Shown one piece after another: positions 44,811 through 47,900 of a stretch of 64,000 nt of DNA. The DNA is from an uncultured delta proteobacterium. Its GTDB lineage: Bacteria; Myxococcota_A; Polyangia; Polyangiales; Polyangiaceae. Positions within the stretch are counted from its first letter, which is position 1, and each line of letters starts with the position of its first letter. The notes under the pieces are model-generated. The model was not told where the DNA came from, did no database searches, and saw only the letters and a list, made by a program, of their open reading frames with translations. The DNA lies in contig CAWAIF010000003.1 of assembly GCA_963782055.1 (NCBI GenBank), forward strand, positions 6,939,165 to 7,003,164, in the 5' to 3' direction. The translations under genes and the position numbers were made by a program.

Positions 44811-45068
44811 TCACCCCGGCTCGTCCGTCCACCCGTCCACGCCCAGCGGATTGAAGACGATCTCCTGGAGCGCTTGATCCAGCATGCCGAGGAAGGGCTC
44901 GGCCACGCGCAACGCGAAGAGCTTCCGCGCGTCGGCGAGTGGCTCCGCCAGCACGCGCGCGCGCTCGTGCACGGGTGCGCGCTCCACGGCCTCCTTGTTG
45001 TAGAGGTACACGTCCCTGGCGATCGCCTGCGCGAGCTGCCGCGCGCTGTGAGGATTGTCGATCCGCAT
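44811..45068 (-). CDS. Small hypothetical protein, host gene of the group II intron
   Basis: 85 aa MRIDNPHSARQLAQAIARDVYLYN...; its ATG coincides with the intron 3' end. Confidence 0.75.
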   Translation of the reverse strand: MRIDNPHSARQLAQAIARDVYLYNKEAVERAPVHERARVLAEPLADARKLFALRVAEPFLGMLDQALQEIVFNPLGVDGWTDEPG

Positions 45069-47102
45069 TGGTAGATCCTTACACCTTGGCCGCCCTACGG
45101 CGGCGGTTGGAGTCAAGACCCCCTCTCAAACCGTGCGTGCGGATTTCCCGCACACGGCTTACCGGTGGTCTCTCGTGACGCGGCATTACGCGGCCTCCGG
45201 GTAGCGGATGGTCCCGCGCAGGCGGTGGAGCCCGAAGCCTTCGACGAAGTAGTCGCGGGTCCAGCGCTCGGCTTGTCCGGCCTTGAGCTTCGAGCCGGCC
45301 CGTTTCAGGCGCAGCGCTCGAAGCCGTTCGTACACGTACTCGTCGAGTCGGTTGAACTTCACGTCGGCGTTCCCGGTGCGAAAGTACTCGCCCCAGCCAC
45401 GCAGCACGGGGTTGAGCTGCGCGACGACGTCGCGCAGGTCCGCGTGGCAGCGTGATCGCGGGGTGAGGTCCCTCACGCGCTGCCGGATCCGCTTCATCGC
45501 GCGAGCCGATGGCCAGCGCTGGAGGAAGTACACGCGTTTGCGCGACCTCTCCCAGATGGACCCGCTCAAGCGTTTCCGCAGGTGGCAGCCGAGGAAGTCG
45601 AACCCCTTCTTACCCCAGGAGAGGTCCAGCTTCCTCGTCTTGTCCGGGTGCAGCTCGAGCCCGAGTCGCGTCATCACGTGCTTCACGCGAAGCTCGGCCT
45701 CGTCGACGTCACGCTTCGTCCTGCACATCACGACGAAGTCGTCCGCATAACGAACCAGCTCGCCAAGATGCGCGCACCGCTTCGTCCACACGTCGTCGAG
45801 CACGGCGAGGTAGATGTTCGAGAGCAGCGGCGAGATCACCCCGCCCTGCGGCGTGCCGCTGGAGGGGTTGGTCACCGTGCCTTCGTCCATCACCCCCGCC
45901 GTGAGCCACTGCCGCAGCAGCTTGAGCACCCTCCGGTCCGAGATGCGCCGCTCGACGAGCTTCATCAGCTTGTCGTGATCGATGCTCCCGAAGTAGTCAC
46001 GGATGTCGGCGTCGAGCACGTGGTTGTACCCCTTCGCGCCGAGCTTCCTCAGCGTCTCCAGGGCGTCCGTCGCGCTCCGCCCGATACGGAAGCCGTACGA
46101 GCACGAGCGAAAGCTCGCCTCGAAGATCGGCTCCAGCACGAGCTTCGTCGCCATCTGCACCACCCGGTCTCGGACCGTCGGGATCCCAAGCGGCCGCTTC
46201 TTCCCATCGGCCTTCGGGATGTACCGGCGCAGCACCGCTGCCGGCCGGTACCTGCCTGCACGGAGCACGTCATGGATCTCTCCGAGGAGTCGATCCACTC
46301 CGTACACCTCGAGCGCCGCGATCGTCTGGGCATCGACGCCCGCGGCTCCCTTGTTCCTCCTTACCCGCTTCCACGCTTCCGCGAGGACGTCACGCCTCGC
46401 GATGCGGTCATACAGCGCGTGGAATCGGCGCTCCGGATGCCGCTTGGCCGCGGCACACAGCCGGCGTTGCAGTTGTCGCACTTTGTCCATGGGCTGTCGC
46501 CGATGGGGGTGGTTGGGACCGGTCTCGCCGGCCATGCCCTCGCGCTTACCTGCTCCGCCGACACGACCACTGCAGGGGTCTTTCCCTCCTGCCGCGTTGT
46601 TCTTCACGGCGTTCGTTCGCGAAGCTCGCGCCTCGCTCTTCGGTACAGTGACCCCCTCGGACTCCCGCTGCGCAGCGGCCGACTTCGCCTCTGGCTTATA
46701 CGACGCGCCTTGCCCCGACGAGGGCGACGCAGACGGGCCTCCCGAGTTCCGCACTCCTCCTTGCACGCGTGCTGCGCTCCCTACCCCGCCGGGACCGACG
46801 GCGCGTTTCGGATCTGGCGCCGCCGATATTGCCTTCGCCGCGACATGATCGGCTCGGCTCCCGGTTTGTAGATCTGACGAGGCTGCAAGCTTCACTTCAT
46901 GTTGCGGCCCGCGTGCTCGCTCGGTCCGTGGACCCTTTCGACGCCCCGCTCGGCCGACGGGATCTCTCCCGCTCGGCTGGGGCCTGCTACCCGGCGCTCC
47001 GACGCTTACCGGTGCGGGACTCTCACCCGCTGGAGAAGCGCAGCTTGAGGCAGGTCGTTCGTCGGGCATGCCCGACGGACGACCTGCTTCTTCACGGCGC
47101 AC
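45066..47102 (-). mobile_element. Group II intron (ribozyme + RT ORF)
   Basis: 5' GTGCG at 47102; domain V AGCCGTGTGCGGGAAATCCGCACGCACGGTT followed by GAGAGGGG; domain VI ending CTACCAAT(G). The 3' boundary is uncertain by 1 nt. Confidence 0.9.
45186..46535 (-). CDS. ltrA: Group II intron reverse transcriptase/maturase, no endonuclease domain
   Basis: RPLGIPTVRDRVVQ, GTPQGGVISPLLSNIYL, RYADDFVV, FDFLG, maturase LNPVLRGWGEYF. Start 46535 or 46490. Confidence 0.93.
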   Translation of the reverse strand: MAGETGPNHPHRRQPMDKVRQLQRRLCAAAKRHPERRFHALYDRIARRDVLAEAWKRVRRNKGAAGVDAQTIAALEVYGVDRLLGEIHDVLRAGRYRPAAVLRRYIPKADGKKRPLGIPTVRDRVVQMATKLVLEPIFEASFRSCSYGFRIGRSATDALETLRKLGAKGYNHVLDADIRDYFGSIDHDKLMKLVERRISDRRVLKLLRQWLTAGVMDEGTVTNPSSGTPQGGVISPLLSNIYLAVLDDVWTKRCAHLGELVRYADDFVVMCRTKRDVDEAELRVKHVMTRLGLELHPDKTRKLDLSWGKKGFDFLGCHLRKRLSGSIWERSRKRVYFLQRWPSARAMKRIRQRVRDLTPRSRCHADLRDVVAQLNPVLRGWGEYFRTGNADVKFNRLDEYVYERLRALRLKRAGSKLKAGQAERWTRDYFVEGFGLHRLRGTIRYPEAA

Positions 47103-47139
47103 CATGCCCCCACGGTACCAGCAGGCCAGCGCCGGTGGC

Positions 47140-47235: not shown

Positions 47236-47267
47236 AGGCCATGCGTGCCGTGTGGTACGCTCGTCCC

Positions 47268-47501
47268 ATGACGCCCGAGGAACGTCGACAGCGAAGGCGC
47301 GCGACGTGGCGAGGGGGCGTGGCCCGGTCGTTCGCCGAGATGGAGCGCGCCGATCTCGACTTCTGGCTGGCGATGACACCCGAGGCGCGCCTCCGTGCGA
47401 TGTGGTCCATCGTCGAAGACACGCTCGCGCTGCGAGGAGAGCATGGACCTCCACCCCGACTTCAGAGATCTGCTGGCGGAGCTCGTCCAAGAAAAGGTTG
47501 A
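47268..47501 (+). CDS. Small putative antitoxin, pair 5
   Basis: DLDFWLAMTPEARL...PRLQRS; paralogous to 25971. Confidence 0.75.
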   Translation: MTPEERRQRRRATWRGGVARSFAEMERADLDFWLAMTPEARLRAMWSIVEDTLALRGEHGPPPRLQRSAGGARPRKG

Positions 47502-47900
47502 GTTCGTCGTCATCGGTGGGTACGCCGTCGGCCGCCACGCCAAGCCGAGGGCGACGAAGGACCTCGACGTCCTGGTCTCGGGCACGAACGCAAACCTGCA
47601 ACGCGTGGCTCGCGCGCTGGAACGCTTCGGCGCCCCCCCCGACGTCGTGCGCGCGGCGCGCGCCATGGCGAAGGACGAGGTCGTGTACCTTGGCCGGGAG
47701 CCGTGCGCATCGGCATCCTGCGAACGGCGGACGGCATCGACACCGACGCCGTGATCGCGCGCGGGGTCCTCACCCGCGTCGGCGATCTGGACGTGCCGAT
47801 CAGCGCGCTCGACGATCTCATCGCGAACAAGAAGGCATCCGGGCGCCCGCAGGATCTGGCGGACGTCTCCGTGCTGGAGCGAGTGAAGGCGTCCGGGTGA
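47443..47900 (+). pseudogene. Nucleotidyltransferase, pair 5, frameshift near 47700
   Basis: VIGGYAVGRHAKPRATKDLD, then LIANKKASGRPQDLAD in another frame. Confidence 0.8.

Follow-up and report, generated by a model that had tools for sequence, protein, structure and literature searches.

We analysed a window of 64,000 nucleotides (nt) from an uncultured delta proteobacterium of the Polyangiaceae (contig CAWAIF010000003.1) and found on its minus strand a 2,037-nt group II intron placed directly behind the start codon of a small gene. The best overall explanation, which we consider probable, is that this intron belongs to an active, endonuclease-less lineage specialised for start codons next to promoters. 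The lineage appears to be new, a specialised form of a known kind of element, and both its targeting and its boundaries are well supported by covariation and by intron-less alleles. The current view has bacterial group II introns homing to fixed sequences or sheltering behind terminators; members of this lineage, present in at least nine phyla, would target the other end of the transcription unit.

On the minus strand the 5′ junction reads TGG-TACCGT, then GGGGGC, then ATG|GTGCG, with the intron running from 47102. The 3′ junction reads AAGGATCTACCAATG (45080–45066)|CGGATC, and its last ATG starts an 85-amino-acid (aa) open reading frame (ORF; 45068–44811). Both junctions, including the AAGGA word and the in-frame ATG at the 3′ side of this copy, are as a first-pass annotation of the window had described them, and the long hairpin that it placed after the 5′ GUGCG is present. 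The 5′ end GUGCG fits the group II GUGYG consensus (Y, pyrimidine); the 3′ end departs from the AY rule (AUG, with C at gamma), and the other core features are intact. Three Rfam models (RF00029, RF02003 and RF02005), covering domain I twice and domain V/VI, matched above the gathering score. The reverse transcriptase (RT)/maturase ORF lies in domain IV, and its 449-aa protein matched the Pfam families RVT_1 and GIIM and no endonuclease family. No Pfam family matched the 85-aa host gene product, and an intron-less allele of this gene was represented in five of five same-genus genomes only by weak homologues (31–45%), which begin at the same place. Features are listed in window coordinates, with exon-binding and intron-binding sites abbreviated EBS and IBS.

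47112..47117, minus: −10-type hexamer TACCGT of the host gene, with TGG before it; its 3′ part is the IBS2 site
47103..47105, minus: captured host start codon ATG, part of IBS1 together with C at 47106; would probably make up the entire 5′ exon if transcription begins on the ATG
45066..47102, minus: group II intron, 2,037 nt, GUGCG...CUACCAAUG, placed by Rfam, junctions and contacts
47050..47087, minus: variable hairpin, 38 nt, near the 5′ end of domain I
46884, minus: delta′ (A), partner of delta (U at 46848)
46870..46874, minus: EBS2 (GAUCU), within loop 46877–46865; covaries with box positions 4–6 and the next base
46844..46847, minus: EBS1 (CAUG), pairing with exon positions −1 to −4 only
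46781, minus: EBS3 (G), pairing with the base directly after the terminal AUG
46659, minus: gamma (C) in J2/3, partner of the terminal G
45186..47105, minus: 639-codon open frame from the captured ATG through domains I–IVa into the RT/maturase
45186..46535, minus: intron-encoded protein from the internal ATG (46535), 449 aa, RT and X domains, YADD motif, without endonuclease domain
45129..45159, minus: catalytic domain V
45070..45123, minus: domain VI, with the bulged branch A at 45072 (−7) and AAGGA (45080–45076) in the paired 3′ strand
45066..45068, minus: the intron's terminal ATG, in frame with the host gene
44811..45065, minus: 3′ exon, host codons 2–85 and stop

The source genome (G000) contains nine near-identical copies (99.2–100% identity) at different sites. 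All nine 5′ junctions read C-[A/G]TG|GTGCG, as in the window, with exons ending in CATG (eight) or CGTG (one), and all nine 3′ junctions read CTACCA-ATG followed by C (eight) or T (one). Relatives were taken from genome contigs (the best 80 of 578 confirmed loci, 56–90% identity) and, out of sample, from metagenomes (80 of 589 loci), leaving out loci with a 5′ end or flank that was interrupted or ran past the contig. The 5′ site count used 70 of 91 entries in the genome set and 52 of 80 in the metagenome set, and the frame count used the 91 copies having both ends of the 5′ half. Parsed end counts used a pattern requiring RTG (R, purine); unfiltered checks comprised 78 and 70 ends.

Insertion sites combine a start codon with a −10 box. 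ATG or GTG lies directly 5′ of the intron at 69/70 genome-set and 51/52 metagenome-set sites, and TAnnnT precedes that codon by 5–8 nt at 65 of the 70 (spacer 6 in 40, 7 in 17 and 8 in 7), against a background of 476/43,080 CATG sites of source-genome contig C3 (1.1%), 4.7% of first ATGs in long ORFs and 0.5% of other RTG triplets within the loci. The box is also present at 17/17 further copies from two genomes, and it is complete at seven of the nine fresh G000 copies, the remaining two having TA at the right distance. A Shine–Dalgarno (SD)-like word stands upstream of the captured codon at only 6/70 sites. As described by Cortes (2013), leaderless genes carry TANNNT 7–12 bp before a transcription start site (TSS) that coincides with the start codon. 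Box and spacing at the insertion sites match this pattern, and the host genes appear to be leaderless, as the first-pass annotation had proposed in suggesting that leaderless-type start sites are targeted and that the host promoter would be used. It had also read the window copy's box as an extended −10; TGG does precede that box, but TG is not conserved across sites (T in 14/65, G in 33/65), and we rejected it as a target requirement. ORFs read from the terminal codon have a median length of 231 codons in frame, versus 34 and 81 in the other frames (n = 76), and 35 of 61 have a Pfam match, several from residue 2–9, including EVE, MnmE, chorismate synthase, ETF and CutA1. Two loci, L051 (inserted after AGG) and L283 (after AAT), have the box at 6 nt and no start codon, and L233 (1–70) is a tandem insertion into the terminal AUG of another copy; all three are consistent with targeting set primarily by the box and with a terminal codon available as a spare start, the use of which is our proposal. 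On contigs C2 and C3 of G000 we counted 1,236 cases of TAnnnT-6/7 nt-RTG; 77% of them have an in-frame ORF of at least 80 codons, versus 58% at control spacing, pointing to hundreds of leaderless genes in this genome.

The ATG repeat at both junctions leaves the boundaries ambiguous in DNA, and we therefore used internal contacts to place them. Domain V is visible at 78/80 genome-set loci, all 78 of which end in ...AC(C/U)NRTG; among 70 readable metagenome ends, 67 are RTG, two are AAG and one is unrecognisable. Gamma is C in 71/71 parsed genome-set loci (the nine identical G000 entries were set by hand and not counted) and in 62/62 of the metagenome set. In outgroup introns, compared by eye, gamma is G with an AC end, A with an AU end and C in an AG-ending intron; a gamma C therefore makes G the last intron base and puts the bulged A at −7, as in the outgroups. 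EBS3 is Watson–Crick complementary to the base after RTG in 71/77 genome-set cases (shuffles: mean 24.7, maximum 41) and in 39/50, plus five G-U pairs, in the metagenome set (mean 14.8, maximum 26). Counting G-U, EBS1 pairs with exon positions −1 to −4 in 77/77, 76/77, 75/75 and 70/74 cases, with 40 mismatches at each of positions 5 and 6. Eight intron-less orthologues at four loci read RTG and then codon 2, with a single start codon and no extra G, and they retain the box at the three Nannocystis loci. The 5′ and 3′ triplets differ at 8/73 sites, and among identical copies only the 5′ triplet varies; the terminal codon therefore belongs to the intron, and the same differences rule out a target-site duplication of the start codon. 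As to a possible rule that the terminal RUG also matches EBS1, introns whose EBS1 contains CAC end in GUG at only 3/5 loci of the genome set (including L019 and L020) and 1/3 of the metagenome set; L283 and L240 end in AAG. The terminal RUG would be kept by a compensated gamma–gamma′ C–G pair. Gamma, EBS3 and the empty orthologues thus bear out the earlier placement of an AUG end with the bulged A at −7 in preference to AY, and the copies and intron-less alleles aligned include neither an AT end at a non-start site nor a contrary empty allele.

The −10 box itself appears to be read in part by EBS2. In the EBS2 loop an invariant A stands opposite the last T of the box, and the next base (U or G) opposite position 5 (A or C). 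This third EBS2 base and box position 5 form a Watson–Crick pair in 52/63 cases (30 expected), in 69/80 with added copies, and in 30/34 out of sample (metagenome set; shuffles: mean 15.1, maximum 25). Free sites in G000 have C at 106 and A at 28, yet its U-intron occupies A or G boxes in 7/7 cases; in the Nannocystis genome G041 (138 C, 71 A), G-introns sit on C in 13/13 cases and the single U-intron on A. Because occupied boxes run counter to host box frequencies, the EBS2 match does not reflect host promoter composition. An intron with CAC in EBS1 occupies GGTG sites in 10/10 copies. The TA of the box is unpaired in 80/80 cases, and an EBS2a-type pair with its A, found in 0/80, was rejected. 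With TA unpaired and only two EBS2 pairs in the window copy, a further reader is needed; most likely the RT contacts the TA, and the RT contact at −14/−15 of another intron, beside IBS2, that Monachello (2021) describes offers a precedent. Every copy assigned a replication direction is co-oriented with it (9/9, 14/14 and 1/1; 24/24 in total), while candidate sites in G000 divide 243 versus 256 by direction. Termini were placed by the switch in FtsK-orienting polar sequences (KOPS) at 3.56 Mb in G000, where dnaA is on another contig, and by dnaA at 12.49 Mb in the 14-copy genome. Introns without an endonuclease are expected to be primed at replication forks, which gives a strand bias (Zimmerly and Semper 2015, PMC4424553).

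The 5′ half of the ribozyme is in frame with the captured codon and stop-free in 79/91 copies and 61/73 distinct sequences. The other two frames are open in 0/73, with about five stops each, and outgroup introns are open in 0/10. Where the frame is not fused to the RT, it stays open from the host codon for at least 108 codons (108–171 or more) in 24/26 cases; in basal members it stops at codon 159–165, shortly 5′ of a conserved internal AUG. Length changes in the hairpin near the 5′ end of domain I preserve the reading frame, and the hairpin is absent in some members with the same targets. Entropy by codon position is 0.61/0.69/0.71 in the extension versus 0.59/0.49/1.12 in the RT, and a conserved leader peptide was ruled out, as the extension has no third-position signal. 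What is conserved would be the passage of ribosomes across domains I–III, not a peptide, with the RT possibly reached either by fusion or by coupling to the internal AUG. The first-pass annotation missed both this frame and the pairing of EBS2 with the −10 box.

In the mechanism that we propose, a ribonucleoprotein (RNP) would insert the intron by reverse splicing at replication forks, where the lagging-strand template is single-stranded, as the orientation of copies suggests. Its target would run TA, IBS2 (the 3′ end of the −10 box and one further base), 3–6 free bases, IBS1 (N-R-T-G) and, across the junction, IBS3; EBS1, EBS2 and EBS3 would pair with these sites as their covariation indicates. 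Since a leaderless gene is laid out in just this way, the intron would land behind its start codon. The host promoter would then yield a precursor with a 5′ exon of about three bases, on which ribosomes would initiate at the captured codon and traverse domains I–III through the open frame, reaching the RT as a fusion, as in the window copy, or leaving the frame just before the RT's own AUG, as in basal members. Such translation would supply the RT and spare 500–600 nt from lying untranslated. RT-assisted splicing at the boundaries given above would join AUG to codon 2 and restore a leaderless mRNA, and in unspliced DNA the terminal RUG would serve as a spare in-frame start for the host gene.

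Several points weigh against this account. Four of 20 listed public read runs (two soil metatranscriptome runs of one study and two DNA runs) gave contigs that match the intron at 99–100% and never the window copy's flanks, and therefore provide no empty allele, junction or proof of transcription; the RNA contigs cover the intron only. The frequency of TAnnnT falls to 36/52 in the independent metagenome set (background 0.4%), where full fusion to the RT is found in only 35/55 loci. EBS2 covariation at other positions is weak out of sample (p 0.03–0.17), and the window copy's box pairs with EBS2 at only 2/5 positions; 10/80 sites have two pairs. EBS3 is loose in the G041 intron ending in GUG (four Watson–Crick, one G-U and five mismatches in 10 copies). 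A 3-nt exon leaves three EBS1 pairs for splicing. The replication termini rest on KOPS skew and dnaA position, and the sites are not independent, as many share an intron or a genome.

Among the alternatives, the least credible is that the boundaries lie one base off, as G-GUGCG...CCAAU, giving a canonical AY end and an insertion inside the start codon. The TG/ATG direct repeat makes the two placements equivalent in DNA, such that empty alleles cannot separate them, and the base at −1 is G at 77/77 sites. With the shifted boundary, however, the gamma C would be unable to pair with U, EBS3 would oppose a constant G and mismatch it in 36/77 cases, whereas it covaries with the next base, and the branch A would sit at −6; the EBS1 register placed here, with loop position 3 opposite −1, agrees with the outgroups. 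A reading confined to the 3′ end is easier to entertain, although we lean against it: domain VI would rebuild an expression signal for the host, either an SD or an outward −10 box 6 nt upstream of the codon, making the host independent of splicing. SD-like words of 4 nt are present in domain VI of 40/68 distinct sequences (5 nt in 14/68), TAnnnT lies exactly 6 nt 5′ of the terminal RTG in 24/68 and nAnnnT in 54/68; outgroup introns are pyrimidine-rich in the same stretch, IIC-attC introns have outward promoters (see below), and L283, inserted after AAT, ends in AAG. Yet neither signal is universal, the window copy having AAGGAT and no box; the bases are paired in the domain VI stem (60–66 of 68 per position); L240 likewise ends in AAG; and L233 shows that the 3′ end can merely be the target of a second copy. 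AAGGA is one of many domain VI variants and sits in the paired 3′ strand, so that a replacement SD, paired and not conserved, is a weak candidate. Of the earlier claim that the host stays translatable with or without splicing, the in-frame spare start codon stands and the replacement SD does not hold up well.

Two further alternatives concern targeting. RNA polymerase might do the choosing, with the RNP entering a promoter on its non-template strand once the open complex has melted it (about −11 to +2), which would select active promoters, and the fork only priming afterwards. This we think unlikely, even though the unpaired TA is the core of a sigma-70-type box, the spacing varies over 6–8 nt as start-site choice does, poorly EBS2-paired sites still keep the box, and L051 and L283, which have no start codon, retain it at 6 nt. 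The TA shifts together with IBS2, as expected of an RT contact beside it, the co-orientation is already accounted for by single-stranded DNA at forks, and a bound polymerase would cover the site. There might instead be no promoter targeting, with insertion at any CRUG-N and only copies behind leaderless promoters surviving or spreading. EBS1 and EBS3 together offer only 5 bp, and copies need a promoter to move; but CATG[CT] sites lacking the box are 100 times as common as those having it (20,600 versus 200), and many would be neutral, the fresh G000 copies carry the box or a correctly spaced TA, and EBS2 covaries with the box against host frequencies, all of which makes this alternative very improbable. 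A bolder combination, speculative and again unlikely in our judgement, has the lineage home on active promoters, with the melted −10 read in a sigma-like manner by EBS2 plus protein, the insertion acting as a feedback switch and the 3′ end as an insurance cassette of promoter plus start. Ribosomes starting from the three-base exon would unfold the ribozyme and make the maturase, which would splice the intron out. If true, the lineage would offer a vector that can be programmed to target promoters, and it would show splicing with a triphosphorylated exon of three bases occurring in nature.

Relatives occur in at least nine phyla (Myxococcota, Acidobacteriota, Pseudomonadota, Planctomycetota, Actinomycetota, Spirochaetota, Gemmatimonadota, Eisenbacteria and Nitrospirota), and cultured hosts include Nannocystis punicea FL3 (14 copies), Polyangium, Sorangium and Pelomonas. 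In a quick maximum-likelihood tree (85 rows, long branches), RUG-ending introns form one clade of 74 rows (SH-like approximate likelihood ratio test, 93) outside the sampled g1, g2, g3 and Rh.sp.I1 references; references were located through Table S2 of Toro 2013, and the tree does not include g4–g6 or Ge.ur.I1/So.us.I2/Pe.th.I2. Besides GUGCG, 5′ ends of GUGUG, UCGCG, UUGCG and GAGCG occur among the relatives. Starts of UCGCG, UUGCG or GAGCG (L050, L069, L071–L075, L079, L168, L235; L019, L020) are found in more than one tree branch and are possibly linked to loss of the penultimate A. A sister-group intron on a Paenibacillus plasmid (L120) has a gamma C, an AG end and a non-start site, and the swapped gamma pair may predate the AUG end. 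L047 and L048 each have a second, different group II intron lying within or against their 5′ part. Copies of one intron in G041 (L153, L159 and L162 versus L154) differ in a block around EBS3 (C versus G), which suggests recombination with a co-resident variant.

Some G000 copies have been altered. One (L117, C3 5377587–5381147) has an insert of about 1.5 kb within the loop of domain VI, with a repeat of some 10 bases on either side. Another (L111 and L112, C3 2503251–2518302) is internally deleted and split, with halves opposite in orientation beside IstB-like ATPase genes, an arrangement that suggests inversion mediated by an insertion sequence. Behind L115 (C3 4455607) the host ORF ends after 20 codons, and the sequence there suggests that a second element entered a few bases past the start codon. 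Three further group II RT genes, only distantly related (about 40% identity), lie on contig C3 at 2272870, 5215537 and 6187065. Within the window, the divergent neighbour of the host gene (47256–47501, plus strand; start at 47268) also has TACGCT-6 nt-ATG but is free of introns; the C at position 5 of its box and the A that is its next base do not suit EBS2 and EBS3 of the window intron. Downstream of that start lies a nucleotidyltransferase-like gene (47434–47900, plus strand), which appears to be split across two frames and whose AbiEii/DUF6036 matches are weak and below the cut-off.

This lineage would depart from the textbook in three features at once. Its target joins a promoter to a start codon, its introns end in RUG on a swapped gamma pair, and its RT would be expressed by translation through the ribozyme from the host codon. 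How short a 5′ exon can be, how translation and ribozyme folding compete, and how the RT reads distal DNA bases thereby become directly testable. Insertion sites would mark likely leaderless genes in phyla with few TSS data, and annotation that assumes an AY end would put every such 3′ end in the wrong place. Literature searches returned no description of the lineage, although Michel 2007, Simon 2008 and supplements may mention members, with the intron database and theses outside their scope; reviews of altered group II splice sites listed nothing comparable.

Translation through the front of a group II ribozyme is familiar from the yeast mitochondrial introns aI1 and aI2, where the RT ORF continues the reading frame of the upstream exon and ribosomes that start at the host codon cross the 5′ half of the ribozyme. 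Unlike that long, fixed exon, the exon of the window lineage would be the start codon alone, new at each insertion, and basal members stop before the RT.

The first-pass annotation had pointed to the Azotobacter vinelandii groEL lineage, and kinship with it was not supported. The Avi.groEL/EcKTE56.groEL clade, as described by Gomes et al. (2025, PMC12584367), consists of IIB1 introns with a CL1 RT bearing an endonuclease and a 300–700-nt insertion in subdomain Ia, and homes to one gene. Both groups insert at or beside initiation or termination codons, and in both the intron end replaces the disturbed codon (UAA to UAG in groEL). The window intron's 449-aa protein lacks the endonuclease and its whole 5′ half is 567 nt, with a 38-nt hairpin that same-target members may lack, which leaves no 300–700-nt insertion and sets it apart by the clade's own description; its lineage further differs in its many unrelated host genes, the −10 box, the RUG end and the translated front half.

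Class C (IIC) introns, which are described as targeting intrinsic terminators and attC sites (Zimmerly and Semper 2015, PMC4424553; Miura 2022, PMC8919778), resemble the lineage in lacking an endonuclease, in a short EBS1, in a functional motif found genome-wide as target and in strand-biased insertion at forks. As there described, class C reads a DNA hairpin without EBS2 and hides from transcription, whereas the window lineage keeps an EBS2 that covaries, reads the promoter end, with sites that follow −10 boxes in place of terminator hairpins, and would be placed for expression. IIC-attC introns carry outward promoters (Leon 2010, PMC3001079), and in both cases sequence near the intron end may restore expression of the neighbouring gene; the outward box is present in only a third of window-lineage members, as a candidate by sequence.

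A further likeness is to class F/g2–g5 and unclassified endonuclease-less introns as set out by Toro (2013, PMC3552965) and Nagy (2013, PMC3753933), with an RT-X protein of about 430–450 aa, an intron of about 2.0 kb, IIB-like EBS1/EBS2/EBS3 and delta–delta′. The window intron encodes RT-X without DNA-binding and endonuclease (D/En) domains, as class F and the g1–g6 varieties do. Studied members of those groups end in AY, unlike the RUG introns, which form a clade of their own in the quick tree sampled with g1, g2, g3 and Rh.sp.I1.

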